Shown here piece by piece: positions 3,010 to 47,953 of a DNA stretch of 55,030 bases. The DNA is from Archangiaceae bacterium (GTDB lineage Bacteria; Myxococcota; Myxococcia; Myxococcales; Myxococcaceae). Made by a program: the position numbers and the translations under genes. The stretch is taken from assembly GCA_043750125.1 (NCBI GenBank), contig JAYVCD010000239.1, forward strand, positions 1 through 55,030. The letters run 5' to 3'. A model generated the notes under the pieces. It was not told where the DNA came from and ran no database searches. It saw only the letters and a program-made list of their open reading frames with translations. Every line of letters starts with the position of its first letter. The first letter of the stretch is position 1.

Positions 3010-4824
3010 TTAGTTGACGACGATGTTGACCGGGGTCGAGAGCGCACCGAAGCGCACTCCCGGGTCATCAATCATTCGCCACTGGAAGACGAACGTGCCG
3101 GCCGTGGCGGGCGCGGTGACCGAGAAGGTGAACGTATTGGTCGAGTTGAGGTTGATCTTTTCAGTCGCGCCCAGCGTCACCCGGCTCTTGCCCCAGCGGG
3201 TGTTGTCGGAAGGCGACTCGGACGCGAGCCGGAACTGATTCAGCTCGGTCCAGGACGTCGAACCGGTATTCCTGAACGCCACCGTGACGTTGAAGACCTG
3301 GCCGCGGGTGACCGTGGTGGGCACCGTCTGCGAGACGAAGCTGGAATTCTTCGGAGCGCGGTTGAGCATGCTCTCGAAGACGACCTTGCGGCGCGGAAGG
3401 AACGTGCCGCTCAGCGCGGGCGAGACCGTGAAGCGAGCCCCATCAGGCCCGGTCTCACTCGACTCGCTCACGTGGGTGAAGCCTCCCGAAGAAGGCCAGG
3501 TGAGGCCACCGCCGAGGTCAGCTCCGTTGGAAAGCTCGTGGCAACCGGCGCATGAGAGCGCCTGCGCGCGCGCGACAATCTGATCGGGCGTCAGCGTGCT
3601 GCCGATCGCCGTCAGCTTGGACTGAATGGCGGTCCGAAAAGGGCTGGCCGCCGTGCCGAACGCCGCGGTGTAGAGGCTGGCCCCAGACTGCGAGTCGCTT
3701 TCGCCGGCGTTGAACTTGTCGTTGGGCGCGTAGTTGAAGGTGTTGATGTCGTTCACCGCCAACTTCGCCACGCTGGCCGAAAACGAGGTCGTGCCCGTGC
3801 CTTCGAACTCGGCCTTCAGCGGTTGGGTCGAGGCCGACCGGAAGAGGTCGGCGAACGGGTTGGTCTTGTCGGTGGCGGGCACGAAGCGCATCGCACAGGT
3901 GGTGGCCGTGGGGCAGGTCTTGTTGATCTTGAACTCGCGCAGGTTCCAGTTGAATTGCATGAACTGGTTGGTGCGCACCTGGCCGGTGGGGCGGGTGGTG
4001 GCGTTGCCGTAGTTGTCGATGTGGATGACGGGCGAGAAGCCGGTGAGGCCGGTGAAGTAGAAGCTCTTCAGCAGCGGAGCGCGCTCGGCGGCAGTCTTGG
4101 TAGACAGGCTCGCCCAGAAATTCAAGACCGGCCGACAGCCTTCGATGCCCAGGTCGAGGCGCGGGTTGGCGAGGGCCGCCTCGAAGATGATGAAGTTTCG
4201 GTTGGTGAAATTGGTGAGCCCCGAGCGGCGCGCGAAGATGACGCGGTATTCGCCGCACGTGGCCCCGTTCGACGGAGCGAGATCAAAGCGGTTCACCACT
4301 GCGATCGGCAGGTACGAAGCAATCGACGTGGTGGGGTTGAGGAACGGATCGAGGCTGGCCTGCGAGCCTTCGACGCGCGGGCAGACGTGGGGGAACCCGT
4401 TGAGCGCAGGAGCGCCGCCGACGAGCTGATCGTTGCAGTGCGCGCCCAGGCCGAGGCCCGGACCGGCGTTCTCGGTGTCCCACCACTGGTGGAACAGCGC
4501 GAGGCTGGTGAGGCCCGTGACGCCGCTCTGGGCGACGAGCTGGTCCATCACTCCTTTGAAGGTGAAGCCCGAAAGGATGACCTGGTCGGTGACCAACAGC
4601 GACTTGCGGGGGTCGATCACCACGGCGGCGGCAGTGACAGGGTCCGACGAGGAGTCCACCGACAGCCCGACGCCTCCGCGGTCGGAAGAAGCCGCGGCTT
4701 CGTCCAGCGCATCTTCGTGGGTGTCTGCGTCGTCGGGGTTGGGATCCACCGCGCCCACGCCGCAGGCTGCTGCGAACAGGACGAGGGTGCTGGTGAACAA
4801 TGTGATCGACTGCGAGCGTCTCAT
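3010..4824 (-). CDS. Secreted lipoprotein with one CxxCH (c-type heme) motif and C-terminal NBR1-type Ig-like domain
   Basis: ATG 4824 after AAGGAAG. Lipobox FAAAC, CAGCH motif, and C-terminal SFVSQTVPT...NTGSTSW...FQWRM Ig-like domain. Confidence 0.7.
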   Translation of the reverse strand: MRRSQSITLFTSTLVLFAAACGVGAVDPNPDDADTHEDALDEAAASSDRGGVGLSVDSSSDPVTAAAVVIDPRKSLLVTDQVILSGFTFKGVMDQLVAQSGVTGLTSLALFHQWWDTENAGPGLGLGAHCNDQLVGGAPALNGFPHVCPRVEGSQASLDPFLNPTTSIASYLPIAVVNRFDLAPSNGATCGEYRVIFARRSGLTNFTNRNFIIFEAALANPRLDLGIEGCRPVLNFWASLSTKTAAERAPLLKSFYFTGLTGFSPVIHIDNYGNATTRPTGQVRTNQFMQFNWNLREFKINKTCPTATTCAMRFVPATDKTNPFADLFRSASTQPLKAEFEGTGTTSFSASVAKLAVNDINTFNYAPNDKFNAGESDSQSGASLYTAAFGTAASPFRTAIQSKLTAIGSTLTPDQIVARAQALSCAGCHELSNGADLGGGLTWPSSGGFTHVSESSETGPDGARFTVSPALSGTFLPRRKVVFESMLNRAPKNSSFVSQTVPTTVTRGQVFNVTVAFRNTGSTSWTELNQFRLASESPSDNTRWGKSRVTLGATEKINLNSTNTFTFSVTAPATAGTFVFQWRMIDDPGVRFGALSTPVNIVVN

Positions 4825-9356: not shown

Positions 9357-11129
9357 GTGTCGCTCTTTGTGTTGCGAGAAGGTTTCAAGGTGGTCACCAC
9401 GCCGGCGGGCGCGGGCCGACTCGTGCACGTGCGAACCGGGGCCGAGCTCGAGGTGTCGACCGAAGACGCGAAGATGCTCGAGCGCCTTGGGACGGGAGGC
9501 CTGGAAGCGACGGACCCCTGGCTGACCGACATCGTCGAACGTTTTCGAGCGCTGCGGCTGTTGGTGCCGGCAGCGAGTGTCTCGGTGCCAGCGCACGGGC
9601 CTTCGGCGATCCCTGCTTCTGCGGCGGCTTCGGGCTCCACGGGCGGGGTGGGCGCGGGTCAGGCGGTGCCGTGCCTGCGGCCGACGTTGAAGGTGAACAC
9701 CAAGGGGCCCTCGTCTTCGCTGGTCAACGTCACCGACCCAGCCACGGGGAAAACCTTTCAGCTGTACGACTTCGAAGTGAGCCTGGCCCGGATGCTCGAT
9801 GGGCGTCGGTCTCACTCCGAGGTGGTTGAAGCGGCGCGACACATCGGGCTTCCGGTCACGTTCGACAGTTTGGTGCGGTTCATTCGCGAGCTCGAAAAGT
9901 ACGGCTTTCTTGCTCCTCCCGGCACGGTGACGGGGGGGCCTGCTGAGCCGTCTTTGTGGCCCGCCCGCGAGCCGTGGGATGAGGCGACCCGCGCGCTGTA
10001 CCAGAGCGGCTTGCGGATGCACCGTCAGGGCCGGTACCACGAGAGCGCGGCCTATTTTGAGGCGATGCTGGTGCAGGATCCGAAGAACGCCGAAGCACGG
10101 CAGATGCTGGACCAGGCGAAACAACGGGCCTCGTTACCCCCCGAAGCGGGCTTGACGCCTTTGCCCGACCTCGGCGATCAGCCGATTGAGCAGTTCGATG
10201 AGTTGTCGTTGGACGATGCACCGGCAGTTGCGGCGGTTGCGAGCGTGGCTGTATCGGTCGATGAGCCCGTGGCGCGCCCTTCGCGACGTCGAATGGCGAT
10301 CGCGCTCGCCGGAGGGCTCGTCGCGTTGGGGGCTCTCGCGTGGAATTTCGCAGGCTCATCAACCCCCGCTCCCGAGGTGGTTCCGGCAGCGGCGGTTCCA
10401 GCAGCCGCGGTTCCGGCAGCGGTAGTTCCAGCAGCCGCGGTTCCGGCAGCCGCGGTTCCGGCAGCCGTGGTTCCAGCAGCCGAGGTTCCGGCAGCCGCGG
10501 TTCCGGTGGTGAATTCAGCTGCAGTTCCAGCTGCCCCTTCGGCTGTTCCGGCCGAGCCAGTTCGAGACGCGGCCGCCGCAGCTCCCGGCCCCTTCGATGC
10601 GGGAACCGTCGCCATCTCAGTCGAGGAGCCTCGTGACGCGAAGGCAGCGGACCCAGGAGCCTCGGGCCGAGCGTGGGAGGTGTTTCCGATTAACAAACGC
10701 GGACGGGTGAAGATGGGGCAGGTGGTCGCCCCAGCCGCCGGAATCGTCTCGTGGAAAACTGCCGCCGAGCAGCGGGTGAAACGAGGCGACCTGGTCGCGG
10801 TAGTCCGAACGGCAGAGGGTGAACAACGCCTGACGGCACCGGTGGCCGGCCTGATGATTCGAACCATCGCCGAGGGTGAGAACGCCCAGGCCGATCAGTC
10901 GTTGGGTGACCTGCTGTACCCCGAGGCCTACTTGCAGACGATCGTCACGGGTGCACGGCCCGACGCTTCCTGGGTGTGCGAGGTCGTCGACGAGGCGTCC
11001 AACCAGCGAGCGGACTGCACCGTGGGCGCCGTCGTCCCCCGGGGCGCTGCCTTCTTCGTCACCGCGATCCTGCTGCCGCGCTGGTTCGATGGGGCGGCCA
11101 ACGCGAAGGTTCGGCTGGCGGCTCCCTGA
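9357..11129 (+). CDS. Membrane protein: two PqqD/RRE-like domains, TPR, TM, Pro/Ala repeat, lipoyl-like/HlyD-adaptor-like C-terminus
   Basis: Probable GTG 9357. VTDPATGKTFQLYDFEVSLARMLDGRRSHSEVV...LEKYGFL (RRE-like), a TPR helix pair, TM, (VPAAA)n, and APAAGIV...VKRGD...LTAPVAG lipoyl half-motifs. Confidence 0.6.
   Translation: MSLFVLREGFKVVTTPAGAGRLVHVRTGAELEVSTEDAKMLERLGTGGLEATDPWLTDIVERFRALRLLVPAASVSVPAHGPSAIPASAAASGSTGGVGAGQAVPCLRPTLKVNTKGPSSSLVNVTDPATGKTFQLYDFEVSLARMLDGRRSHSEVVEAARHIGLPVTFDSLVRFIRELEKYGFLAPPGTVTGGPAEPSLWPAREPWDEATRALYQSGLRMHRQGRYHESAAYFEAMLVQDPKNAEARQMLDQAKQRASLPPEAGLTPLPDLGDQPIEQFDELSLDDAPAVAAVASVAVSVDEPVARPSRRRMAIALAGGLVALGALAWNFAGSSTPAPEVVPAAAVPAAAVPAAVVPAAAVPAAAVPAAVVPAAEVPAAAVPVVNSAAVPAAPSAVPAEPVRDAAAAAPGPFDAGTVAISVEEPRDAKAADPGASGRAWEVFPINKRGRVKMGQVVAPAAGIVSWKTAAEQRVKRGDLVAVVRTAEGEQRLTAPVAGLMIRTIAEGENAQADQSLGDLLYPEAYLQTIVTGARPDASWVCEVVDEASNQRADCTVGAVVPRGAAFFVTAILLPRWFDGAANAKVRLAAP
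10380..10505 (+). repeat. 15-bp coding tandem repeat GTTCC(G/A)GCAGC(C/G)GNN, ~8.4 copies, encoding VPAAA
   Basis: Units start at 10380, 10395, 10410, 10425, 10440, 10455, 10470, 10485 and 10500 (partial). Confidence 0.9.
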
Positions 11130-11133
11130 AGTT

Positions 11134-12258
11134 TCAGGGAGGAAGTTTTCGGTACCGCTCGTAGATCCAGTCGACGACCCAGCGGGTGATGGCCCGGGCT
11201 CCGGCCGGCGAATAATGAATGCCATCGTCGAGACGAAAGCGATTGAGCCGGCCGTCGGAACCGCGAATGAAGGTGGCGTATTCGCCCGCTGAATCAGAGA
11301 CCAACATCTGCAGCTCGAGAAACTCGACCCCCGGCACCTTCTTCGCCGCCTGAGCGAAGATCGCGTTGAGGTACTGGGCATGGTGCGAAAAGCGTCCGGC
11401 GCGCATCGGCGGAAGCCCCAACCACAAGACCCGCGCCCCGCCCATCGCGAGGGTGCGCATCATTTCCATCACCCGCGCCGAGTAGGCGGTGCGCCACCCC
11501 GCTTCACCGAAGTCCACCGGGCGATCTCCGTCCCGAATGCGGGTGCCATCGTTCGCGCCCAGTGAGCAGACAATCAGCCGGGGGTGTTCGCGTTCCAGCA
11601 ACGGAGCCAGGACCTTCATCCAGTCGTAGACGTCGGGCCGCGAAAGGCCGGTCGCGGTCTGAAATGCGTGGACGACGCGCAGTCGGGAGTCTCGTGCGAG
11701 CGCCCGTGAGACCGCTGCGCCCAGACTGCCGCCGATCATCGAATCGCCCATCAGCAAGACGGTGACCGCGGAATCTTTACTGGGGCTTCCGGGGAGCTTC
11801 GTGCCTTCGACAATCTCGGGCAGCGCTTCGGGCGGGGGCAGGCTCGCTTCCTTCGCGGCTGCAATCGGCGCTGCTTCGCCGGGGTCATCCCACCCCTCTG
11901 CGAGCAAGGGGTCTTCGCTGGCACCGAGCATGCGACCCACCCACGCCCCCGAGCCGACCGCCCACCGACGGGGGCCGGTCAAGCCCAGGTGGTCCATCGC
12001 GGTGTTGATCGGGCCGAGCACTGAACGCCAGGCGCTCTGCACCGGACCGAGATCCATTCTCTGGACCCAGGTGAGCAACCCCTCGGAATCGAACGCCACC
12101 AGCAGGGCCGCGCAGATTCCCAACACCAGCGCGACTTCGCGCAACCGATATTCCCGAACGGCCGGCGCTCCATCTGAGGTTGCGTCCTCGTCATGTGCGG
12201 CGACCGCCCGCGCCAGAGCACTGTGCAGATTCTCGGCGGGCGGAATTGAACCGTTCAT
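11134..12258 (-). CDS. SGNH/GDSL hydrolase-fold O-acetyltransferase (DUF459/PatB-like)
   Basis: ATG 12258 overlaps the MBOAT stop. GDSM, GLSRPD..DW, GANDG and DGIHY catalytic motifs. Confidence 0.85.
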   Translation of the reverse strand: MNGSIPPAENLHSALARAVAAHDEDATSDGAPAVREYRLREVALVLGICAALLVAFDSEGLLTWVQRMDLGPVQSAWRSVLGPINTAMDHLGLTGPRRWAVGSGAWVGRMLGASEDPLLAEGWDDPGEAAPIAAAKEASLPPPEALPEIVEGTKLPGSPSKDSAVTVLLMGDSMIGGSLGAAVSRALARDSRLRVVHAFQTATGLSRPDVYDWMKVLAPLLEREHPRLIVCSLGANDGTRIRDGDRPVDFGEAGWRTAYSARVMEMMRTLAMGGARVLWLGLPPMRAGRFSHHAQYLNAIFAQAAKKVPGVEFLELQMLVSDSAGEYATFIRGSDGRLNRFRLDDGIHYSPAGARAITRWVVDWIYERYRKLPP

Positions 12259-35407: not shown

Positions 35408-35500
35408 GCCGCGCTTTAAGCACACGCGACCCCAAATGACGCGCGTGCCCAATGGTTTGTGTAGCGGTTGGTGGGTAGGCGCAGATACAAGGCGCCTCCC

Positions 35501-36721
35501 ATGCCCAAGGCTCTCAGCATCGACCAACTTTTGAAGAACGGCTCCAAAGATTGGAACAACATGCGCAAAGACGGCCGCGTGGCGCTGGACCACACCGGCG
35601 CGACCTTCGCTCAGTTGTTCTCGGCGAACGCCGACCTGTCGGGCCTGTTGTTGATCGGTTCAGAGTGGGAAAAGTGCGATCTGTCGAAGGTCTCGTTTCG
35701 CGAAACGGATCTTTCCAACGCGTACTTTCACGGCGGCCGGCTGCAGGACTGCGACTTTCGCGGCGCCAATCTCGAGGGCGCGACCTTCGAAAAGCTGAAG
35801 CTGCTGCGGTGTGATTTCTCGGGCTGCAAGGGCCTCGAAGAGCTCGAGCTCGAAGACGTGGACATGGATCGCGTGGTCGGCCTCGACGGGCAGGAAGCGC
35901 CTCCGCCGCCTCCGCCGCCTGCCGTCGGGATCACCAGCTTTACCCGCGAGCAGCGCACCGCTCAGCTCGCCTCGCAGGGCGTGGTTCAGGAAGGAGATCT
36001 GCCCCCGTTCCGCCCGCATGATCCTGCCGGCACGCTGCTGTTTCGCGGGCTGAAGCACGTCGGCAACCCTCCGGTCTGGGTGCTCGACGTGCCGGGCCTT
36101 CGTCCTCCCCTGCCCGGTCGCCTGACTCCGGGCACCAGCCTCGAGGCGCTCTACCGGGAAGCGGTGAAGACGCGGCTCGAAAACCGTCGGCCGGTTGCGG
36201 ACAACCAGGCGGTCGAGAAGGCGAAGGAAGTCATCGCCCAGGGCGCGAAGGACACGGCTGCGGCGGTGATGTACCTGCGCGAAGTCGGAGTCGAGCCGAC
36301 TCCCTCGGAAGCTGCGGTCAATGCGCTCAACCTGGCGATGTCGGCTGAAATCGAGATTGAGGATCTGACGGGCCAGGTGGACCCGCGGGTCACCGGCGCG
36401 CTGCTCGAGCTCAAAAGCCCGACCGCCGCGCTCGAGCACATCGGAGAGCTTCGCCAGCGCCTCGCGGCCTGCCAGCTGTTCGCCTCGCTGCTCGAGGCGG
36501 GCTTCCTTCCCGAGAACAACTGGGAAGAAGCGCTCGAGTCGCAAGAGTCGGCGCTCGATCTCGCGCACCAGGCGACGCAGGGCAATCGCGAGCTGCTCAA
36601 AGACGCATTTGGCGCCTACGCGAGCCTGCCCGACGAAGCCCGGTTGCGTCGGCTGGCGTACCTGGCCGAAGCGACCGCCCATGTGGAAGCGATGGTCGGC
36701 GGAGTCGCTCCGGCCGCCTGA
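35501..36721 (+). CDS. Pentapeptide-repeat protein with polyproline linker and helical C-terminal domain
   Basis: ADLSG/CDLSK/TDLSN/CDFRG/ANLEG repeats followed by a PPPPPPP run. Confidence 0.85.
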   Translation: MPKALSIDQLLKNGSKDWNNMRKDGRVALDHTGATFAQLFSANADLSGLLLIGSEWEKCDLSKVSFRETDLSNAYFHGGRLQDCDFRGANLEGATFEKLKLLRCDFSGCKGLEELELEDVDMDRVVGLDGQEAPPPPPPPAVGITSFTREQRTAQLASQGVVQEGDLPPFRPHDPAGTLLFRGLKHVGNPPVWVLDVPGLRPPLPGRLTPGTSLEALYREAVKTRLENRRPVADNQAVEKAKEVIAQGAKDTAAAVMYLREVGVEPTPSEAAVNALNLAMSAEIEIEDLTGQVDPRVTGALLELKSPTAALEHIGELRQRLAACQLFASLLEAGFLPENNWEEALESQESALDLAHQATQGNRELLKDAFGAYASLPDEARLRRLAYLAEATAHVEAMVGGVAPAA

Positions 36722-36837: not shown

Positions 36838-37145
36838 CCTCGGAATGCGCTGACTGAGGAACGTGGCCTTCAGTCCACGGACCTGGAGCATCGCCAGACC
36901 ACCGGCATCACCATCTGCTGCGGCGCGAGGGCGCGCGCGTGCGGTACGCCGATTGCTGTTCGGTTCCGAGCGTTCGTCCCCTTTCAAGGAGCATCGATGT
37001 CCCGGATCCGCCACTGCAATCGCCCAGCGGCCCGGGCAATGTCCCGTTCACCACGGTCACTCCGGACCAGAGGGTCCACTTCCTCCGCTCGAACGACAAC
37101 GGCGGCTTTCAAACTTCAATCGGTTAAATGAGGAAACAGACTGCC

Positions 37146-37337
37146 ATGACTCCTACCCCCCACTGCTGTCTGAGCTGCCACAAGCCCGAGTCGTCCACCG
37201 TGCGCGGAGGGCTCTTCACTTCCAACGGCGACAACGGAATGATCATCACGTTCTGGCTTTGCGACAGCTGCGCGCTGCCGCTGGGACCGGGGCAGGGAAA
37301 AATCGACCTCGACGCGAAGGCCCGCCCGCCGGTCTGA
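37146..37337 (+). CDS. Small putative zinc-ribbon protein (CxxC...CxxC)
   Basis: GAGGA upstream of ATG 37146. 63 aa with CLSC and CDSC. Stop abuts the convergent gene. Confidence 0.5.
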   Translation: MTPTPHCCLSCHKPESSTVRGGLFTSNGDNGMIITFWLCDSCALPLGPGQGKIDLDAKARPPV

Positions 37338-38339: not shown

Positions 38340-39209
38340 TCAGCCGGGTGCGGCGGCGCGCGGACGCCAGAATGCGGCTCCGACCTCACCGACGACCACT
38401 CCGGCAATGATCAACCCTCCGCCCCACAGCTCGCGGCGGCCGAGCACTTCACCGGCAGTGAGGGTCGAGTAGCCGACCGCGAAGACCGGTTCGAGCGCGA
38501 AGATCAGCGCGGCGCGCACGGCCGTCGTCCGCGCCTGGGCCCAGGTCTGCAGGCCAATGCAGACGGTGGTGGCGAATAGCCCGGTGACCGCGATGGCAAG
38601 CAGGAGTCCCGGGGTCCATTCGACCCGGCGCTCACCGAAAGGAACGAACGCCGAGAACCACCCGGCGCAGAAGACCAGCTGGGCGGCGACGAGGGGAAAG
38701 GCCGGGTGTCGCGCGGCGTAGCGTTCGGTGAGCGCGATGTGAAAGGCGAAGGCCACCGCGCAGCCGACGGTGAGCAGGTCTCCGGTCAGGGTTCCCGCGG
38801 CCGAGGCGGCGTCGGTGAGCAGGTAGAGCCCGAGGACGGCGATGGCGGCGCCCACCACCGCCCAGAGAACCAGCCGTCGCTTGAACAGCACTGCCGAGAG
38901 GAAGGGCACCAGAATGACGCAGAGCCCGGTGAGGAAGGCCGAACGAGACGAAGAGGTCCACAGCAAGCCCCAGGTCTGCAGCTGGTAGCCAATCAACAGG
39001 CAGGTGCCGAGGACGGCCGCCGAGCGCCAGAGCGCGGCATTCAACAGGGCTCCCCGCGCGATCAACACCGCGGCGACCGCGGCGAGGGAAAAACGCAAAG
39101 CCAGGAAGGTGAGCGGGTCGGCATGGCCGAGCGCGTCTTTGACCACCACGAAGGTGACGCCCCATAACGCGGTGATGAAGAGCAACACCGCGTCGGCGGC
39201 GGGCTTCAC
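38340..39209 (-). CDS. DMT/EamA family transporter
   Basis: LWGVTF, ALRF, LEPVFA, about 10 TM segments. Confidence 0.92.
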   Translation of the reverse strand: MKPAADAVLLFITALWGVTFVVVKDALGHADPLTFLALRFSLAAVAAVLIARGALLNAALWRSAAVLGTCLLIGYQLQTWGLLWTSSSRSAFLTGLCVILVPFLSAVLFKRRLVLWAVVGAAIAVLGLYLLTDAASAAGTLTGDLLTVGCAVAFAFHIALTERYAARHPAFPLVAAQLVFCAGWFSAFVPFGERRVEWTPGLLLAIAVTGLFATTVCIGLQTWAQARTTAVRAALIFALEPVFAVGYSTLTAGEVLGRRELWGGGLIIAGVVVGEVGAAFWRPRAAAPG

Positions 39210-40312
39210 GGGATGAAGAAGAAGGCGATCGCCAGGATCGCGTAGACGCCCAACAGCATCACGCCCTCGAGCCAGTTGGATTCGCCGTCGAGCGCGATCA
39301 AGGTGGCGGCCCCGACGCCGATGCCCATTCCGACGACTTCCATGTGGGAAAACTCGAGCGTCAGCGGGTGGCCGAGGGGAATCGAAATCAGCACCAGCAC
39401 CGGAGCTACGAACAGCGCGATCTGCTTGCTCGACTCGAACGCGATGTTGAAGGCGAGATCCATCTTGTTCTTCATCGCCATGATGATCGCGGTGCTGTGC
39501 TCGGCGGCGTTGCCGATGATGGCGATGATGATGACGCCGACGAAGGTCTTGGTGAAGCCGAAGCTGGCGATCGCCGGTTCCAACGAATGGACGAGGAACT
39601 CGGCGACGACCACGACGCCGACGGTGGCGAGCGCGAGGACGATCGCGGCCTTCCTGATCGACCAGTGGGGAAGCTCTTCTTCGCCGCCGTCGCTCTCGCC
39701 CGCGTAGATGTGCGCGTGGGTCTTGAGCGCGAAGAGCAGCGAGAGGCCGTAGATGATGAGCAAGATGATCGCGATCCCGACCGACATCGGAAACAGCATC
39801 GGCAGGCCGGCGTCGCCACGGACGACGTGAAACAAGTCGGGGATGCTCATCGCGGTGACGGCGAGGAACATCATCGCTCCGCCCGAGAGTGCGGCGGTGG
39901 TGTTGAAGGTCTGCTTCTCGCGCTTGATTCCGCCCGCGACGATCGCCATGCCGAGGACGAGCAGGATATTTCCGAGGATTGCGCCGGTGATCGACGCCTT
40001 CACCACCTCGGTCTGGCCCTCGCGCAGCGCGGCGATCGCGATGATCATCTCGGCCGCGTTTCCGAAGCTGGCGTTCATCAGCCCGCCGAGCCCCGAGCCG
40101 ACCTTGTGCGCGATGACCTCGGTGGCCTCGCCCATCAGCCGGGCGAGCGGGATGATCGCGATCGCGCAGAAGACGAAGGTGTTGGTGCCGGGGAAGAAGA
40201 AGTGGGAAGCGACCGCGAGCGGGAAGAAGATCGCCAGCACCGCGAGGAAGACGCGATCGGCCGTGAGCCAGACCCTTTGACCGTCCTTTGGTGCAGTCGG
40301 AACGGGGGTCAT
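39206..40312 (-). CDS. cax: Calcium/proton exchanger
   Basis: Two GNAAE alpha-repeat motifs, GNILLVLG, DGESNWLEG. Confidence 0.92.
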   Translation of the reverse strand: MTPVPTAPKDGQRVWLTADRVFLAVLAIFFPLAVASHFFFPGTNTFVFCAIAIIPLARLMGEATEVIAHKVGSGLGGLMNASFGNAAEMIIAIAALREGQTEVVKASITGAILGNILLVLGMAIVAGGIKREKQTFNTTAALSGGAMMFLAVTAMSIPDLFHVVRGDAGLPMLFPMSVGIAIILLIIYGLSLLFALKTHAHIYAGESDGGEEELPHWSIRKAAIVLALATVGVVVVAEFLVHSLEPAIASFGFTKTFVGVIIIAIIGNAAEHSTAIIMAMKNKMDLAFNIAFESSKQIALFVAPVLVLISIPLGHPLTLEFSHMEVVGMGIGVGAATLIALDGESNWLEGVMLLGVYAILAIAFFFIP

Positions 40313-40325
40313 TGGCCGGCAGGGT

Positions 40326-41282
40326 CTACCAGCGTCGTTTCCCCATTGGGAGCGCAAAGGTCTTGGGTGGCCCGTTGTTCAAGGGGCTTGATGTCGAGCT
40401 GCCGACAAAGTTCGCACGACAAGCGTCGCCCGCACGGGCTCCGCGGTTGTATCGGGTCGCGCTGCGAGGCCACGCAGGGAGGCCAAACGCTTCAACCGCG
40501 GCGACGAAGCCGGATTGTGACGGCTGAATCTCCGCGCCCAATGGCTTGAGCCCACGGTCCTCGGCCTCCCGCAACAACCGGTCGAGCATCACCAGCTCGA
40601 GCCCGAGCCCCTGCGCGCGGCGCTGGAGAAAGGCGTGGCGGACGATGTTGTCCGCGGTGAGGCATGCGCAACCGACGATCTGGCCCTGGCGTTTGGCACC
40701 GACGACGACGCCATGGTGGATCAAGGATTCGAGCGCGTCTCCGCTGAGCGTTTGCCAGCGCGATAGGGCGATCGCGAACTGTTTGAGATTGTCCGGGCCG
40801 AGCACGTCGATCTCGACCGGGCCGAGCAGTTGGCGAAGACGGGCGGTGGATTCGGACGCGAGCGCACTAACCAGGGCGGCGTGAATGGTGCGGATTCGAG
40901 GCGAGTGGGCCGCGCGGCTCCAGACACGCTGGAATCCGAAGAGGGCGAAGCGGGCGGGGCGGGGCAATGGAATGACGGTCGACCCCCGGCGGACGGCGAC
41001 CGCGCGAGCCAGGACTTCGAGCCCCGGAAGATCTGGAGTTCCCGCAAATGACTCGGTGACCACCGGGTTGGTCGCGACGACGAGGTGGCCGATTAGAGCT
41101 CCGTCCGAACGCAACATCACCGCGATGTCTCCCTTCTTCAGCGCTGCCTGGGAACAACGAATGACCTTCAACGATTCTCCGCCGCGCAGCACGGGGCGCA
41201 TGCTGCTGCCTCGAACGCCGACCCACATCAGCTTGCCCTCGGGCTGGCCCTTCAGCACCGCACCGAGAACCTCGGACGTCAC
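40326..41282 (-). CDS. S24/S26 (signal-peptidase-like) peptidase fused to a GNAT-like domain
   Basis: GTG 41282 overlaps the kinase stop (GTGA). VRGSSMRP..GD/GE..GDI..IGHLVV peptidase core. C-terminal IVGC...FLQRRAQGLG resembles acetyl-CoA motif A. Confidence 0.7.
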   Translation of the reverse strand: MTSEVLGAVLKGQPEGKLMWVGVRGSSMRPVLRGGESLKVIRCSQAALKKGDIAVMLRSDGALIGHLVVATNPVVTESFAGTPDLPGLEVLARAVAVRRGSTVIPLPRPARFALFGFQRVWSRAAHSPRIRTIHAALVSALASESTARLRQLLGPVEIDVLGPDNLKQFAIALSRWQTLSGDALESLIHHGVVVGAKRQGQIVGCACLTADNIVRHAFLQRRAQGLGLELVMLDRLLREAEDRGLKPLGAEIQPSQSGFVAAVEAFGLPAWPRSATRYNRGARAGDACRANFVGSSTSSPLNNGPPKTFALPMGKRRW

Positions 41283-42070
41283 TTGGAAACCCACTCGCGG
41301 AGGAAAGGACCGACGGCGGGGTCTTTGCGGAAGGTGAGCTTGTGGACCCCGACCGCGTCGACGGCCGCCATCACCCGGCGGGTGACTTCGCCACGAGGCA
41401 CGATGTCGATGACTGAGGTGAAGATCTGGCTCAGCAGCTTGGGCATCGCTGCTGCGGGTTCCAGAGGGGTGAGCGCCTCGTGGTCTCCCTTCTCGAGCAG
41501 CAGCAAGGACTTCAGTTTCGTAGGTCCTGGGGAGCCGATGTTTTCGAGGTTGGACCGGAACGGAGTGCCCCAGCAGGTTCCGTCTGGGAAGAGTTGAATG
41601 ATTTCGTCGGTGAGGAGTTTGGCGTGGCCGGGATGGCCGGAGGACAACGCCGCGAGGGTGGATTTGCCGGCCGTGCTTTCACCGATCGCGGCGACTCCGT
41701 GCTCGCCCCAGGTGAAGGCGCAGCCGTGCATCAGGACTCCGCCTTGGCGGAGAGTTTCTATTTGATAGGCAATGCGAAGAATTGATTCCGCAGCCCAGAC
41801 GTCGTTGGGGATATGTGCGTAGAGCCGGTCGCTCTCGAGTGAGAAGTCGCCCCAAGGGGCCAAGCAGTCTTCGAGAACTCTCGATCGTGGCCGCGCTTGC
41901 GCGACCCGTTCAATGGTCAAAGTCGCGGCCTTCCTGGCGGCAAAAGGTCTGCAATCAACCCGCGCAGAGGCAAGGCCGACCAGGTCACCGCAATCGATCA
42001 CCCCACTGCCGCAAACAACAGCTGCCTCATAATCAGAGCAAGCCGCCACTGGTTCGGGTCTGAATTCCAA
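41279..42070 (-). CDS. HPr kinase-related P-loop kinase
   Basis: GVLMHGC (HprK His), Walker A GESTAGKST, LLTDE acidic pair, GTPF. Start uncertain. Confidence 0.8.
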   Translation of the reverse strand: MEFRPEPVAACSDYEAAVVCGSGVIDCGDLVGLASARVDCRPFAARKAATLTIERVAQARPRSRVLEDCLAPWGDFSLESDRLYAHIPNDVWAAESILRIAYQIETLRQGGVLMHGCAFTWGEHGVAAIGESTAGKSTLAALSSGHPGHAKLLTDEIIQLFPDGTCWGTPFRSNLENIGSPGPTKLKSLLLLEKGDHEALTPLEPAAAMPKLLSQIFTSVIDIVPRGEVTRRVMAAVDAVGVHKLTFRKDPAVGPFLREWVSK

Positions 42071-42091
42071 AACTTTAATAGTCGTAAGCCA

Positions 42092-42241
42092 CTAGCACCC
42101 CGGAGGACCACACGTCAGGCCTGAAGAGCAAAGAACTGTAGGAGGTTGGCAGGGACTGAGGGCCAGGAGCTGATTTGGCCCGTCGATCAACACGCTCAGG
42201 ATGGCAGGGGGTTTCCACGTACGCCGAGGACGATGGTTCAC
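42092..42241 (-). CDS. Putative RiPP-type precursor peptide (49 aa, WxxP leader, Cys-rich core)
   Basis: Hand translation: MNHRPRRTWKPPAILSVLIDGPNQLLALSPCQPPTVLCSSGLTCGPPGC*. GTG overlaps the upstream TGA (GTGA). Lies among RRE, kinase and peptidase genes. Confidence 0.72.
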   Translation of the reverse strand: MNHRPRRTWKPPAILSVLIDGPNQLLALSPCQPPTVLCSSGLTCGPPGC

Positions 42242-45200
42242 GGCGGGTTCCATACAGTCACCTTTCCATTTCCGTCGAGAAAATCACCCGCTGCGATATC
42301 GCGCTTTCCGTCGCCATTGAAATCACCGGATGACATGCGAGTTCCGAGGCCGCTCGTTCCCGGAATCGTGCTGAGCTTGGCCTGCCAAAATCCAACGCCT
42401 GCGACAGTATCGAACTCCATTCCTGCCAAACGTCTGTTCTTGAACACCCAGATGTTTGCCGAGGTGGAAAACCCATGGCTGACGACCAAATCTGTTCCAG
42501 ATCCTGGAGCCAAATCGAGCGCCAGAACGTCGCTACCAAAAAACGACGAAGGAGGACCCGTGATCGTTGTCGATTCGCCCGGAAACAGAGCACCGGTCCG
42601 ATCGGTGTGAATCATGACCCGATTGCCAGTCGCCCAGGACACGATCAAATCCAAAGCGCTTCCACCTGTGACATTCACACCGCCAATGACTCGCACCCCA
42701 TAACCCGACTGTGATGCGGGCGCGTGAGTCGGCTTTGCAAACGATTGAAGGGAATCGTCGGGGATGCCCGCGTCAATTCCGCCGGTGGTGAATACTGTCC
42801 CTGCGTCTGCAGCTGACACGACGCTTCCGCCAAAGATGAAGATCCGATTCGCCGACTCGAGTGAGGCCGGAATGACAAAATCGGACGGCCCGGAAGTCCC
42901 GAGGCGACCCAGGTTCGCGAAGCCGCCCGGCGCGCTCCCGAAGCCGTTACCGGCTGCGGGCGAAGGCAAAGGGCCCATGAAGTTGCGATCGGCGCTCGAC
43001 ATCGGGATCGGCTGGGGGAGCGCCTTCCAAGCGGCTTCACTGCGGCCGTAGAACAAATAGACACGGCCGCGATTGGAATTTTCGTTGTCTCCCGCGAGGA
43101 AGATGTCGTCGATTCCATCTCCGTCTAGATCGCGGACAATTTGAGCTGAACGTCCAAGCTGACTCGCGGCGTTTCCGGCAAAGACCACGTAGTCCGCAGC
43201 CGTCGTGCCGAGCTGCGGCTGATTCCGTCCAAAAAACAACAGCGCCCGTCCTGCTGACATGTTTGCAGTGGGCGAGCCGACAAGAAGATCCTTCTTCGTA
43301 GAACCGGTCCCATCGTCCGCAGCATTTCCAACCGAGCAGTCGGCTCCGAAGGCACCGAGTACCGAGTCCGGAGGCTGAATTTCCTGGGGAGCCGCATTGC
43401 CAAAACTCGACCCGCCGTAATAGACAAAGACCCGATCAGCAGCTTGTGCACTCACGACAAGATCGTCCACTGCATCGCTGTTGAGACTTCCGTTCGCAGC
43501 CGTAACGAATCCAAAAAGTTTGCCAGCTCCACTCGTCGGCGCAGCAAGACTGTAAATGTTCCAAGGGTTATTCACGGTCTGTCCTGCTCCAGCCGGCACA
43601 AAGGCAGAGTAGTTCCCCACTTCATCCCGCGCTCTCACGTAGTACCGCGTGGTGACGAGCGGAGGCGTCAATACATCTCGACTGATGGTCGCTGACGACC
43701 ACGCCGAAGTGGAATCCGCATAAGCCATTGCAGAATTGAAGAAGTCGTCCGACGAGCCCAGTCCCGCGCTGACAACAGACGTAGTCCAACGCACGTCGTA
43801 GTACCCGCCATTCGGCCCTGGCACCAAACCACCCGACGCAGCACTGTTGCCGTCGTCGTAGACCGGGCCCCAGGTCAGGTTGATGATCGCCTCACGCTCC
43901 TTCCCGGCGAACAGCGTCGCCAGAACAACCGGAGCCGCAGGCGCAACGACATCCACAATTGCGCTCGACGTCTGATCAACGACGTTCCCAGCAGCATCCG
44001 AGACGCGAATGGTCAGCGGTCCGGTGGAGTTCTGGCTCAGAGTCACGGGAAGGGTAACCGATTCCGAGGCGGTCACGATGTTCACCGGGCCGGAGACCGT
44101 GACACCTTGGTACAAAACAGACACCCGACCCCCGGCAGCTCCGGCGGCATTCAAGCTCACGACGAACTGAGCGCCCGCCTTGCTTTCGTCGGTGTCCACG
44201 ATGAAGCCTGGAGTCGCGGGCGGACGAAGGAAGTAGTTTCCCGGCGCCACGAAGGTGAAATTCGCGCCCGCAGGCGAAACCGCGGTCACGACCGGATCCG
44301 TGAGGTCAACGGTGACGACAACGGCGCGCGCGGTGGCGCCGCCACTGTTCATTTCGGCGGTCAGCGTCAGAACGCCCTCAGGCAGGGAAACGGGGAAGCT
44401 GAAGCCACCCGTCCCACCCGTCATCGCAGGAGAACCCGGTAGCTCCGTCTTTCCCGCCCCAGTGCCGGTGAAGAAACGAATCGGCTGACTGGCGCAATTG
44501 GTACTCCCAGCCAAAGTGTATTCCAGCGTGGCTGCGGTCGCAGGAGTCGCGTCGTTGCTCTTGTTCAAGAAGGCCGGATTTCCCGTGGGCGAAGCAAAAG
44601 TGATGCTGCAGCCTGGCGCGTTCACCACGATGACTTGAGTGGTCGAGCAGGTATTGCCCGCTGCATCCGTTACTGACGCGCGGACAGTCTGAGTCCCGCT
44701 CGGAAAGGTAATCGTCTTCTGTGCCGTCCCGGCAGCGACAGTCATCTGGTCCTGTTGAGCTTCTGCGGCTGCTCCAACCTGAGAGAACACCCGGGCGATC
44801 AAGCCATTGCCATTCGTGACCGAGACATTGGTCGGAATGTCGTACGTGGCGTAGTCCCCACCCGATCCCGTCCCTCCTCCAGCGACCGGGGAAATCAAAG
44901 TGCAACCCGGAGCGACGAGATCCACCAGCACCTGCATGGTGGGGTTGGGCGTCACGTTGACGTTGCCCGCGCGATCTCGCACCTGGCAAGTCACGGTGTA
45001 GTTCGTCTCGCCCGTACCGGCGACGGTGAAGTCCTCAGTCGCGACGCCCCCGGACGGAGTCGGAGTCTTCACATCAGCCGCCGCACCTCCCGTCAGCGTC
45101 AGAGTCGCCCCAGCCGCCTGAACGTCGGCCGACACGGCAACCGAAGCGGTGACTTGATAGCCAGACAATGCGCCATCAGCGTCATCCGCCGTCCCGAGCG

Positions 45201-47577
45201 CAGCCTTGTTGGGAAGAATGAAGCTGCAGGTGGGACGAATTCGGTCTACCCGCAGACTGGTGATTGCTGCACTGTTGAGAGGATCATTGGCGGTCGGGTT
45301 GGCCACGATGTTGGTGTTGCCAACCGCGTCCTGCACCACCACAACCAGGCTGAAGTCCGCTTCGGTTGCGGAACCTGCGGCGAGCCCCGGCAGTGGAACG
45401 GTGGCCGCATTGTTTACGACAGTGACCGCCGTCGCAGGACTCACGGCCGTACCGGTTGAAAGTCGGACCAAGAGGGTCTGACCATTCTCCACACCCGAAG
45501 TCGTGATCAACGCAACGGGATCTCCACTCGCCTGCTCGCTCAGGTTGAGGATTCCGTCGGCGTTCGCGTCGCCCTGGAATGTCACGCCGACGACCGTCGG
45601 TCGGACCGTATCAACGACGATTGGGACGTACGAGGATGCGGCCGTTCCGCCCCCAGCAAAAACAAACACGACCTTCAACTGATACGCACCCTCGGGATAG
45701 TTGAAGGTGTTGGTGCTCTGAGGAACGTTGTTCGCGAGGACAAATCCGACGCCATCGGGACAAGCCATTGAGCCCGCCACGACCTGAGTCGCAGTACAAA
45801 CGGTTGCGCTGGCGCCCGCGGGAAGTGTGGGTTGGTACAACAACGTGTACTGCCCCCCTGCGACGGCACGCTGCAAATCCAACGCGGCAGTGACCTTGAA
45901 GTTCGCGATCGGAAAGGTCAGTGACGGGGACTGAAGGTTGACAATGATTGTCACCGTCGTCTTCGTGACATTCCCTACGCCATCATCAATCTGCGCTTCG
46001 AAATTCACCGAGGCCGGCGCGGTCTCAGGAATCACAAAATTCGGAGACCGATACACGCCCGCGCCATCGGTCACCCCGCTCAGGGTCTGCGGCGCAACGC
46101 CGGCATTGTTCACCGCACGAATGCTGACGCTCTTCCCTGCACACGCCGAGGTCGTAGTGACCTCGAGCGCATAGCTCAGCGTCGCCGCTCCAGGCGTCGA
46201 GTTGTTCGACTGAGTCAGCGTGACCGGGTTGGCCGACGGCCGCGAGAACGTGAGCGGGCAACCCACCGCGGCGACCGTGATGTCCTGCGTCACTGGCGCG
46301 GACACATTCCCCAGCGCGTCCGTCGCCACGGCGCTCACCGTCTGGGCACCATTCTGAAACGACCCCAGCCCGGTGGCATTGTTCGCCACGACCGCGAGCA
46401 CTCCGAGATCGCGCTTCACTCCCGCGAGGGTGGTGCTGAATTGAACGCTGACGGCTCCACCGGTCGTCGTTGCGGTCAGAGGAATATTGAAGGTCGAGTA
46501 CGGGCTGCCTGCCATCGTGGGGGAAGTAATCGCCAGGGTCGGTGCCTCGAAATCGACAGTGATCGGAGTGGTCGCAGTGCAGACATTCCCGCTGCTGTCC
46601 GTTGCTTCGACTGTAAATGTATAAACCTGGGTCCCACTGGCCGGAACCAGGAAGTCAGCCACGAACGCCGCACCCGTAAACGACTTCGACCCCGTGCTTT
46701 CTGGAGTCGAAATTTTGAGCGCGATGAACTTCGCTTTTGCGCTGGCATTGCCCGTCGCCCGCACCTGGTAGCCCGCGACGGTGGTGTTCGCGTCGTCGTT
46801 GGGACCGACGAGCGCCTTCTCGGTCGTGACCAAGCAGGTGGGAAGCGTGCGGTCCACCGCGATCATCTTCACCGCGTCCGGGTTGCCGGTCTGCGAATTG
46901 CTCAGTGAGCCATGGGTCACCTTGGCAAACAACGAATACGCGCCATCCGCGAGCGCGGCCGCCGGCACCTGCACCGTCACCGCTGAATTGGCAATCGCCG
47001 ACGACGCGAGCACCGTGTTGTTCGCGGTGTTGAGAATCTGCACCGTTCCCCCAATCGCTCCCTGGGTGACCAGCTCAATCCGCAGGTCCGAAGCAGTCGG
47101 CAGCTCAATGCTGTTCAACACGCCCGTCGGCATCGCGGTGTCTTGTGGATACGCAAACGTCACGACCTTCGGCGGGTCATTGGTGACGGGGACTTCGACC
47201 TCAATCGACTTGGTCCCGGTGCACGCGGTGCCCTTCTTCTTCACCGTGACTTTGAGGACGTTCTTACCCGGCTCGAGGGTGACGGCGACAAACGTCGCTT
47301 TCCCCGCCTCGAGGGTGCCGTCGCGGGGCACGGTGAAGCCCGTCCCCGAGCTGGGGCGCGAGACCAACTGGGCGCTGTCGAGCTCAATCAAACCGCCCGC
47401 GCTGTTGGCAACCTTGATGGTCACATCGACCGTGGAAGGGACGGCGGTCATCCCGTCTTTGGGAGCCTCGAAGGTGACGAAGAGGTCTTCGCATTCCGAG
47501 GGGCCGGGGCACGAACAGCCGCCCGCAATCGCCATCACACCCAGTACGCACCACAGCCTCGTCATGTTCGCTCGCAT
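42238..47577 (-). CDS. Giant surface lipoprotein with bacterial Ig-like repeats and C-terminal FG-GAP (integrin-alpha-like) propeller
   Basis: AGGTGAGG upstream of ATG 47577, lipobox IAGGC, many TDAAGN...VD..AP Ig-type repeats, FG-GAP motifs (DLDGDGIDD, GDFNGDGKRD, RVFVYYG). Confidence 0.82.
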   Translation of the reverse strand: MRANMTRLWCVLGVMAIAGGCSCPGPSECEDLFVTFEAPKDGMTAVPSTVDVTIKVANSAGGLIELDSAQLVSRPSSGTGFTVPRDGTLEAGKATFVAVTLEPGKNVLKVTVKKKGTACTGTKSIEVEVPVTNDPPKVVTFAYPQDTAMPTGVLNSIELPTASDLRIELVTQGAIGGTVQILNTANNTVLASSAIANSAVTVQVPAAALADGAYSLFAKVTHGSLSNSQTGNPDAVKMIAVDRTLPTCLVTTEKALVGPNDDANTTVAGYQVRATGNASAKAKFIALKISTPESTGSKSFTGAAFVADFLVPASGTQVYTFTVEATDSSGNVCTATTPITVDFEAPTLAITSPTMAGSPYSTFNIPLTATTTGGAVSVQFSTTLAGVKRDLGVLAVVANNATGLGSFQNGAQTVSAVATDALGNVSAPVTQDITVAAVGCPLTFSRPSANPVTLTQSNNSTPGAATLSYALEVTTTSACAGKSVSIRAVNNAGVAPQTLSGVTDGAGVYRSPNFVIPETAPASVNFEAQIDDGVGNVTKTTVTIIVNLQSPSLTFPIANFKVTAALDLQRAVAGGQYTLLYQPTLPAGASATVCTATQVVAGSMACPDGVGFVLANNVPQSTNTFNYPEGAYQLKVVFVFAGGGTAASSYVPIVVDTVRPTVVGVTFQGDANADGILNLSEQASGDPVALITTSGVENGQTLLVRLSTGTAVSPATAVTVVNNAATVPLPGLAAGSATEADFSLVVVVQDAVGNTNIVANPTANDPLNSAAITSLRVDRIRPTCSFILPNKAALGTADDADGALSGYQVTASVAVSADVQAAGATLTLTGGAAADVKTPTPSGGVATEDFTVAGTGETNYTVTCQVRDRAGNVNVTPNPTMQVLVDLVAPGCTLISPVAGGGTGSGGDYATYDIPTNVSVTNGNGLIARVFSQVGAAAEAQQDQMTVAAGTAQKTITFPSGTQTVRASVTDAAGNTCSTTQVIVVNAPGCSITFASPTGNPAFLNKSNDATPATAATLEYTLAGSTNCASQPIRFFTGTGAGKTELPGSPAMTGGTGGFSFPVSLPEGVLTLTAEMNSGGATARAVVVTVDLTDPVVTAVSPAGANFTFVAPGNYFLRPPATPGFIVDTDESKAGAQFVVSLNAAGAAGGRVSVLYQGVTVSGPVNIVTASESVTLPVTLSQNSTGPLTIRVSDAAGNVVDQTSSAIVDVVAPAAPVVLATLFAGKEREAIINLTWGPVYDDGNSAASGGLVPGPNGGYYDVRWTTSVVSAGLGSSDDFFNSAMAYADSTSAWSSATISRDVLTPPLVTTRYYVRARDEVGNYSAFVPAGAGQTVNNPWNIYSLAAPTSGAGKLFGFVTAANGSLNSDAVDDLVVSAQAADRVFVYYGGSSFGNAAPQEIQPPDSVLGAFGADCSVGNAADDGTGSTKKDLLVGSPTANMSAGRALLFFGRNQPQLGTTAADYVVFAGNAASQLGRSAQIVRDLDGDGIDDIFLAGDNENSNRGRVYLFYGRSEAAWKALPQPIPMSSADRNFMGPLPSPAAGNGFGSAPGGFANLGRLGTSGPSDFVIPASLESANRIFIFGGSVVSAADAGTVFTTGGIDAGIPDDSLQSFAKPTHAPASQSGYGVRVIGGVNVTGGSALDLIVSWATGNRVMIHTDRTGALFPGESTTITGPPSSFFGSDVLALDLAPGSGTDLVVSHGFSTSANIWVFKNRRLAGMEFDTVAGVGFWQAKLSTIPGTSGLGTRMSSGDFNGDGKRDIAAGDFLDGNGKVTVWNPP

Positions 47578-47641
47578 CGATGCCTCACCTGCAGAGCCGC
47601 GCATGGTGGCTCTGCTGAGTACCGCCCTCGCCGCTCCCCAT

Positions 47642-47953
47642 TCAGTCCGGGGACAGCACCTTCTTTTGAACCAGGATCTCTATGAATTGAACCGTCTGCT
47701 GCTCGCACTCGGCCTGCTCGACTTCGAACTCGCTCTGAAGCACCGCGGCGATTTCCCCCACCGTACGGTTGCCATCCACCAACGAAATGATCCGTTCGCC
47801 CACTTCTGACACTTCCCCCTCGGCTTCGAAGGTGTGGAGCGCGTCATCAGGCGTTGCCGCCATCCACCGTCCCTTGACCTGCTGTACACCCGTTTCCGGA
47901 TGTACCCGAGGCACCCAATTCAGCCATTGATGAAAGGTGCGCCCAGTCGTCAT
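47642..47953 (-). CDS. Stand-alone PqqD family protein / RiPP recognition element (RRE)
   Basis: 103 aa: SEVGERIISLVDGNRTVGEIAAVLQSEFEVEQAECEQQTVQFIEILVQKKVL, the PqqD helical signature. Confidence 0.88.
   Translation of the reverse strand: MTTGRTFHQWLNWVPRVHPETGVQQVKGRWMAATPDDALHTFEAEGEVSEVGERIISLVDGNRTVGEIAAVLQSEFEVEQAECEQQTVQFIEILVQKKVLSPD

Follow-up and report, generated by a model that had tools for sequence, protein, structure and literature searches.

Kinase-bearing gene clusters for lasso peptides encode precursors whose leader carries a YxxPxL motif at positions -17 to -12, and this motif is described as being bound by a discrete PqqD-type B1 protein (PMC10368454, PMC6784204). In the Bradymonas system, where the precursor is BsfA, the RiPP recognition element (RRE; RiPP, a peptide made by ribosomes and modified after translation) BsfB1 is reported to speed up phosphorylation by the kinase BsfK (PMC10368454). 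The HprK-type kinases of lasso clusters of Firmicutes and Proteobacteria are described as phosphorylating the C-terminal Ser (PMC8498205), and BsfK is presented as an exception that acts on Ser3 (PMC10368454). Here we analyzed a 55,030-nt contig of an Archangiaceae bacterium of the Myxococcota (GenBank JAYVCD010000239.1; "the window" refers to this whole stretch), in which an unannotated open reading frame (ORF) on the minus strand (42092-42253) probably is a genuine precursor peptide gene of an RRE-dependent peptide-modification cassette.

This candidate ORF runs from ATG 42253 to a TAG stop codon (42094-42092) and encodes 53 amino acids (aa). An alternative start at GTG 42241 gives a 49-aa version, and this GTG overlaps the TGA (42240-42238) of the upstream 1788-aa gene as GTGA. 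At the other end, 21 nt separate the ORF from TTG 42070 of the next gene, which encodes a kinase-like P-loop protein, so that it fills the 167-nt gap between both genes (42071-42237). The initial annotation of this DNA had proposed a 49-aa ORF almost filling the gap, with its start lying over the stop codon of an adhesin gene, and our coordinates confirmed this proposal. The residues that it reported also match the sequence: there are Cys residues at positions 31, 38, 44 and 49 (49-aa numbering), the last one being the final residue, R-P-R-R is followed by W-K-P-P-A-I in the N-terminal part, and Asp and Glu are absent from the final 29 residues. The genes encoding a PqqD-type RRE, the P-loop protein related to HprK and ScmC, and a protein combining S24-like and GNAT-like domains (S24-GNAT) lie on one strand, and the candidate ORF occupies the only sizeable gap between them. 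A Shine-Dalgarno-like sequence precedes the ATG. Of the 4125 start-like triplets that the window contains, 1.0% follow a match of at least 6 nt, but none of 41 gene starts, taken as the starts of the longest ORFs, does, and AGGTGA is therefore a weak argument for the ATG start.

The candidate shares its leader signature with small ORFs located beside related kinase and PqqD genes in other phyla. The comparison set consisted of 20 loci listed by one genome scan with a generic P-loop pattern, all of which contain distant relatives of the kinase-like protein, as confirmed with a family hidden Markov model (HMM). Nine of the 20 loci have a 45-67-aa ORF with a [YW]xxPx[LIVM] motif preceded by K/R beside kinase, PqqD or radical SAM genes, and in five (L001, L002, L006, L007 and L011) such an ORF lies directly upstream of the kinase gene on the same strand (Table 1). 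We regard these small ORFs as real genes because the one in L006 is a curated paeninodin-family lasso peptide (NF033524, 47.8 bits vs a cut-off of 27), because two pairs of the encoded peptides are conserved (L001p and L002p, 52% identity, E 2e-14; L003p and L005p, 44% identity, E 1e-14), and because those of four G+C-rich loci have positive codon scores. When aligned using MAFFT, all nine comparison peptides were in register at the motif, with an invariant Pro and with a basic residue (K/R) placed two to four positions ahead of the aromatic one. Two further possible precursors that end in Ser were seen near PqqD or kinase genes and stayed outside the leader model described below, one in L008 (8377-8742, minus strand, R-K-P-W-T-T-P-V-V) and one in L014 (13470-13679, minus strand, R-K-L-Y-L-A-P-H-I).

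The layout of the candidate also resembles that of the comparison peptides encoded beside radical SAM genes. It has 35 residues after the motif, vs 31-41 in the radical SAM-type peptides, its first Cys stands 22 residues after the aromatic residue, vs 18-20, and it contains four Cys, vs two to three. Furthermore, the genes for L003p and L005p begin 5 and 10 nt past giant ORFs (1761 and 1860 aa, respectively), and the candidate overlaps the stop codon of a 1788-aa ORF. Giant ORFs of 1101-1860 aa encoding Peptidase C25 proteins adjoin the cassette in L003 (12070-17355, minus strand), L005 (4042-9624, minus strand), L001 (2985-6290, plus strand) and L002 (10504-14046, plus strand). BLASTP found no similarity between the 1788-aa lipoprotein of the window and these giant proteins. 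A giant secreted protein encoded beside the peptide gene may be a recurring theme, as with the 1788-aa lipoprotein.

A leader HMM of 16 columns was trained on the nine comparison peptides, with the candidate left out. Among 1230 six-frame segments of the window (103,210 residues), the candidate was the top match (8.3 bits, E 0.16), and the runner-up scored 6.7 bits. Across the 20 listed loci (608,603 residues), the training peptides scored 15.6-23.2 bits and everything else scored 5.7 bits or less. The candidate is thus the best non-training leader match in the 711,813 six-frame residues of the window and the loci combined. Scaling the E-value of 0.16 to the gap, which has 165 same-strand positions, gives about 2.6e-4 expected matches. 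The leave-one-group-out models ranked the candidate 2, 2, 1 and 3 in four of five cases. The initial annotation had likened the stretch of basic residues followed by WxxPxI to an RRE-binding leader motif, a likeness that gains support from the leader-model ranking and from the same signature in nine of the 20 loci.

The motif itself is rare in its strict form, [KR][KR]x[YW]xxPx[LIVM], with 17 occurrences in 776,222 six-frame positions. A looser form gave 14 matches in the window, of which that of the candidate alone fell in a gap between cassette genes. The only other strict match in the window (35477-35503, plus strand, R-R-R-Y-K-A-P-P-M) is in frame at the N-terminus of a 417-aa pentapeptide-repeat protein (35468-36721). 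It lies about 5.4 kb from the candidate ORF and 4.6 kb from the S24-GNAT gene, and the opposite strand carries a 363-aa ORF without family match.

The alternative that survives best is that the ORF is a chance open frame in a 167-nt spacer of DNA with 58-64% G+C, that its motif is a coincidence, and that the true substrate of the RRE lies elsewhere or is a larger protein. We consider this unlikely, yet several observations speak for it and against a genuine precursor. Among 5000 simulated 211-nt stretches, 15.7% (Markov model) or 12.4% (shuffles) contained a complete ORF of at least 49 aa, as did 8.5% of 2194 real windows of this length, so that chance yields such an ORF in 8-16% of stretches. 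Of 130 ORFs measuring 45-70 aa, 19% had at least four Cys, and off-frame G+C-rich DNA yields peptides rich in Pro, Arg, Cys and Trp. A second minus-strand frame is also open over the gap (42075-42218, 47 aa), making two of the three same-strand frames open. Among the intergenic gaps of at least 100 nt, three of 11 have at least 85% of their length covered by an ORF. Taken alone, the ORF does not exceed chance expectation.

The codon signature points the same way. The G+C content of the candidate ORF by codon position is flat (0.63, 0.59 and 0.61). Its whole-ORF codon log-odds score (-0.163) is below that of 99% of 296 real 53-codon windows and mid-range among 92 spurious ORFs, 45% of which score at least as high. 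A codon model derived from four cassette genes gave -0.101, below all 44 real windows, and a score restricted to synonymous choices placed the candidate at the 3.4th percentile when compared with all genes and at the 9th when compared with local ones. Four control precursors from G+C-rich loci all had positive codon scores, vs the negative score of the candidate. The deficit is held by the last 20 codons, the presumed core, in which the G+C content at third codon positions (GC3) is 0.45 and the log-odds score is -0.601 (0.2 percentile of real-gene windows).

Similarity searches add to these objections. Using phmmer, we found no homologue of the 53-aa peptide at E <= 1e-3 among 1,835,955,588 representative proteins, the sole match at this threshold being an unrelated 475-aa repeat protein. 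No related small protein was thus found, yet the kinase-like protein has 67 relatives. The candidate has no paralogue in the window (best non-self E 0.13), and none was found at E <= 10 when the 20 loci were searched as six-frame ORFs. Pfam and NCBIfam scans gave no family match. Full-length HMMs of L001p and L002p, of the lasso trio, or of all five did not place it in the top 8 of 975 window ORFs, the full-length model of L003p and L005p ranked it 4th (E 0.94), and BLASTP against L003p gave an E-value of 0.15. There was no significant full-length similarity to the comparison peptides, which thus share a short motif with the candidate but no demonstrable homology. The leader model has weaknesses of its own: without the Acidobacteriota pair L003p and L005p the candidate fell outside the top 6, held-out real peptides reached the top 6 in only three of nine cases, and background matches scored up to 7.6 bits in the smaller leave-out models. 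The last residue of the candidate is Cys, whereas it is Ser in seven of the nine comparison peptides. In addition, a 5.4-kb gene lies between the RRE gene and the candidate ORF, the cassette holds no enzyme known to act on Cys, and a Pfam search covering 44 ORFs of the 55-kb window revealed no radical SAM protein, no lasso cyclase (Asn-synthase-like) and no B2 protease (transglutaminase-like).

Several observations argue against a chance frame. A leader model that had never seen the candidate ranked it first of all non-training matches, and the leader motif at this site is more than chance would give. The place and size of the ORF, the spacing of its first Cys and its position behind a giant ORF match those of real small genes of related cassettes. 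Codons 1-33, which correspond to the leader, are coding-like, with a GC3 of 0.70 equal to that of the neighboring genes and a log-odds score of +0.106 (17th percentile of 487 real windows), resembling the four control precursors (13th-31st percentile). Finally, the gap offers no sign of another role. It contains no sigma-70-like promoter, no Rfam match, no terminator on the gene strand and no sigma-54-like site on the minus strand. Its RNA folds worse than shuffled sequences (z +1.82), and its repeats are short and at chance level only.

A second alternative, which we regard as very improbable, is that the ORF is the relic of a true precursor gene whose leader is still recognizable, whose core has drifted or been exchanged in recent times, and whose peptide is no longer made or matured. 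This would account for the sharp difference in codon signature between leader and core (GC3 0.70 vs 0.45; +0.106 vs -0.601), and the window lacks the Cys-acting enzyme found in the radical SAM-type relatives. However, the frame is intact from start to stop, a GC3 difference measured over just 20 codons is not decisive, and the high conservation of the RRE in relatives (up to 88% identity) speaks for a functional substrate.

Two ways of attaching the ORF to a neighboring gene were rejected. A frameshifted C-terminal extension of the 1788-aa lipoprotein is ruled out by an FG-GAP match that reaches residue 1785 of 1788, indicating that this protein ends naturally. The candidate and kinase-like ORFs are in the same reading frame with one TAG and seven codons between them, but homologues of the kinase-like protein begin near a conserved C-G about 20 residues into the ORF and those with longer N-termini lack the motif, so that the candidate is not an N-terminal extension of the kinase, and we take the common frame as a coincidence.

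If the ORF is a genuine precursor gene, as we think probable, its maturation could proceed as follows. The PqqD protein would bind R-R-T-W-K-P-P-A-I as an added strand, as lasso B1 proteins do with YxxPxL leaders, and would offer the Cys-, Ser-, Thr- and Pro-rich C-terminal part to the P-loop enzyme for an ATP-driven modification, most simply phosphorylation of Ser/Thr. The leader would be cut off by the S24-like domain, and the GNAT domain could acetylate the product, perhaps on the N-terminus newly exposed by cleavage. Disulfides might join the four Cys, or an enzyme encoded elsewhere might modify them. Translation of the peptide may be coupled to that of the 1788-aa lipoprotein through the stop/start overlap, and the Na/Ca-exchanger and EamA membrane proteins encoded downstream may export the product. 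The cleavage between LLA and LS, the phosphorylation and the disulfides put forward in the initial annotation are purely inferred, and lasso spacing, with the aromatic residue at -17, would put the start of the core two residues before the cleavage site proposed there.

Table 1. Features of the window and small ORFs of the comparison loci.
Sequence	Feature	Coordinates	Strand	Size	Remarks
Window	Candidate precursor peptide ORF	42092..42253	-	53 aa (ATG 42253) or 49 aa (GTG 42241)	Top non-training leader-model match; no Pfam/NCBIfam family match
Window	Leader signature R-R-T-W-K-P-P-A-I, form (K/R)(K/R)x[YW]xxPx[LIVM], presumed RRE-binding motif	42200..42226	-		In register with eight other small ORFs in alignment
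Window	Presumed core, 4 Cys, Pro/Gly/Ser/Thr-rich	42095..42154	-	Last 20 codons	Leader/core boundary only presumed; GC3 0.45
Window	Shine-Dalgarno-like AGGTGA	42258..42263	-		4 nt 5' of ATG 42253, within 3' end of upstream gene; match of at least 6 nt
Window	PqqD-family RiPP recognition element	47642..47953	-	103 aa	PF05402, E 1.9e-10, 41.4 bits vs cut-off 23.4
Window	Putative lipoprotein (adhesin of the initial annotation), Ig-like domains and C-terminal FG-GAP repeats	42238..47604	-	1788 aa	Pfam FG-GAP, Big_13, Big_3_2
Window	ScmC/HprK-like P-loop protein (kinase-like)	41279..42070	-	263 aa from TTG	67 homologues; invariant H115, GxSxxGKST, D155-E156
Window	S24/S26-like peptidase and GNAT-like fusion; candidate leader peptidase and acetyltransferase	40326..41294	-	322 aa	Invariant G-x-S-M-R-P and His70
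Window	Na/Ca-exchanger-family and EamA-family membrane proteins	38340..40357	-		Tightly packed behind fusion gene; Pfam Na_Ca_ex 6.7e-36, EamA 3.8e-32
L001	Small ORF, YEKPEI	1733-1885		50 aa	Immediately 5' of kinase
L002	Small ORF, YQKPEL	9406-9567		53 aa	Immediately 5' of kinase
L016	Small ORF, YSKPAM	10845-10982		45 aa	PqqD stop overlapped
L003	Small ORF, YEPPQI	11903-12064	-	54 aa	Adjoins cassette
L005	Small ORF, WQRPRI	3828-4031	-	67 aa	Adjoins cassette
L006, L011	Small ORF, WQAPVL	9417-9581 each		54 aa as listed	Immediately 5' of kinase
L007	Small ORF, WQAPVV	9373-9567		64 aa as listed	Immediately 5' of kinase
L018	Small ORF, YKKPEI	441-602	-	53 aa	Divergent from kinase

On the minus strand, the genes are arranged in the order heme A synthase, heme O synthase, PqqD-family protein, 1788-aa protein, the gap with the candidate, P-loop protein, 322-aa S24-GNAT protein, Na/Ca-exchanger, EamA and metallo-beta-lactamase-fold protein. 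The RRE named in the initial annotation (47642-47953) is a PqqD-family protein according to its Pfam match (Table 1). This protein also gave sub-threshold matches to PqqD and lasso B1 models and has 46 homologues sharing up to 88% identity. The 1788-aa protein starts with a hydrophobic stretch ending in Cys, which we read as a putative lipobox.

The protein called a kinase in the initial annotation appears to be an HprK/ScmC-like P-loop protein. Its relatives, mostly unnamed and some of them from Myxococcota metagenome-assembled genomes, have the His, the G-x-S-x-x-G-K-S-T motif and the D-E pair arranged as in HPr kinase, and homologues carry PF27840 ScmC. These relatives score below the cut-offs of the NCBIfam HprK-related kinase A/B and ScmC models. 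The protein of the window is itself below every curated cut-off, its best match being HprK_rel_B (E 0.01, 15 bits vs a cut-off of 200), and the ScmC model was not reached. A tblastn search of plasmids with the kinase-like protein gave no match.

All 17 members of the S24-GNAT family matched Peptidase_S24, and 12 and 11 of them matched two GNAT models, but no match reached the curated cut-offs. The fusion protein also matched the PDB GNAT structure 4mbu (E 0.008), and the protein-atlas clusters that resemble it carry GNAT families, one of them being automatically named "Signal peptidase I family". The ORF list used for the window called two of these genes too short, with 150 aa for the kinase-like protein and 291 aa for the S24-GNAT protein, whereas lengths of about 250-263 aa and about 270-322 aa, respectively, are supported by homologues. 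The 291-aa call begins at a Met just past the invariant Ser of G-x-S-M-R-P and thus loses the likely nucleophile. In L001, a partial ORF located upstream of the PqqD gene (34-321, plus strand) shows a non-significant likeness to archaeal-type signal peptidase I (E 0.15), and a profile comparison of this ORF with the S24-GNAT family of the window found nothing. It may be a hint that other cassettes also include an S26-like peptidase.

Homologues of the PqqD, kinase-like and S24-GNAT proteins seem to share contigs, as nine cases of contigs of equal size (8056, 7028, 95957, 12366, 8759, 2018, 13136, 7132 and 3695 nt) suggest, and would then form a conserved gene set. GC3 is about 0.70 in the PqqD, lipoprotein and kinase-like genes and 0.77 in the S24-GNAT gene, vs 0.80-0.90 in most other genes of the window, and the G+C content falls to 0.55-0.58 around 41750-42800. 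The cassette (40326-47953) may be an acquired island.

Elsewhere in the window, a 589-nt gene-less gap contains a 69-aa Cys-rich ORF (37128-37337, plus strand) with C-C-x-x-C and C-x-x-C pairs. Its codon score (+0.168) is the highest of all intergenic small ORFs, and it may be a real gene for a small zinc-ribbon-like protein. A 1.1-kb stretch (11130-12257) is devoid of ORFs with a coding signature and holds low-scoring small ORFs only.

If real, the candidate ORF would provide the missing substrate for an uncharacterized conserved gene set (PqqD RRE, ScmC-like P-loop protein and S24-GNAT protein) that has dozens of relatives in environmental Myxococcota. The lasso-type leader motif would then be used in cassettes with quite different tailoring enzymes, and the function of the ScmC/HprK-related "kinase" would become directly testable. 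The gene was missed by gene callers and by sequence searches and was revealed only by the comparison of gene neighborhoods across phyla. More tentatively, the candidate could found an undescribed Myxococcota RiPP family in which a PqqD-type RRE reads a lasso-like leader code and serves a ScmC/HprK-like ATP-dependent enzyme and an S24-GNAT fusion, with neither a lasso cyclase nor a radical SAM enzyme taking part. Its peptide gene would be coupled to that of a giant surface protein, like those of the cassettes in Acidobacteriota and Anaerolineae that are linked to Peptidase C25 proteins. In that event, one leader code would be common to at least three maturation chemistries.

As in the lasso kinase clusters (paeninodin, NF033524; BsfA), the candidate is a small ORF that directly precedes a gene for an HprK-like kinase, the arrangement of L006, L007 and L011, and its W-K-P-P-A-I appears to fit the aromatic-x-x-Pro-x-aliphatic leader in the form [YW]xxPx[LIVM]. 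Trp at the aromatic position also occurs in lasso precursors of Paenibacillus (W-Q-A-P-V-L). In contrast to lasso precursors, the candidate has no NF033524 match at E <= 0.1, its last 29 residues offer no Asp or Glu for a macrolactam ring, and lasso spacing would put Gln at -2 and Leu at core position 1, where lasso cores have Gly, Ala, Ser or Cys, with the ring-closing Asp or Glu at positions 7-9. The window also lacks the Asn-synthase-like cyclase and the B2 protease, whereas L006 has Asn_synthase. The candidate ends in Cys and not in the C-terminal Ser of lasso kinase substrates. With three defining features of lasso peptides absent, the candidate is not a lasso peptide, and the initial annotation was right in excluding a lasso ring.

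Precursors of sactipeptides and ranthipeptides are likewise short, with an RRE-recognized leader and several Cys in the core, as in the candidate. These systems differ in having a thioether-forming radical SAM/SPASM enzyme, and the window encodes none.

Within the 20 loci, the relatives of the kinase-like protein that score best belong to cassettes of ScmC/HprK-related, PqqD and radical SAM/SPASM proteins (L001, L002, L003 and L016), for which NCBIfam uses the names "SynChlorMet cassette" (ScmC/ScmD/ScmE/ScmF) and "HprK-related kinase A/B". Our literature search found nothing in print on these cassettes, and the mentions of YxxPxL that it returned all concern lasso peptides. As in the window, the kinase is paired with a PqqD-family protein, and the 45-67-aa ORFs combine a basic-[YW]xxPx[LIVM] leader with a Cys-holding core, as in the candidate. 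In L001, L002 and L003, and also in L005, a giant secreted protein is encoded beside the peptide. The window differs in lacking the radical SAM/SPASM proteins (ScmE/ScmF type) present in L001, L002, L003 and L016 and in having instead the S24-GNAT fusion, which occurs in none of the 20 loci. Its giant neighbor is an Ig-like/FG-GAP lipoprotein, whereas theirs is a Peptidase C25 protein. Of the systems compared here, the candidate works most like the precursors of ScmC/HprK-related and PqqD cassettes, with a different set of enzymes.

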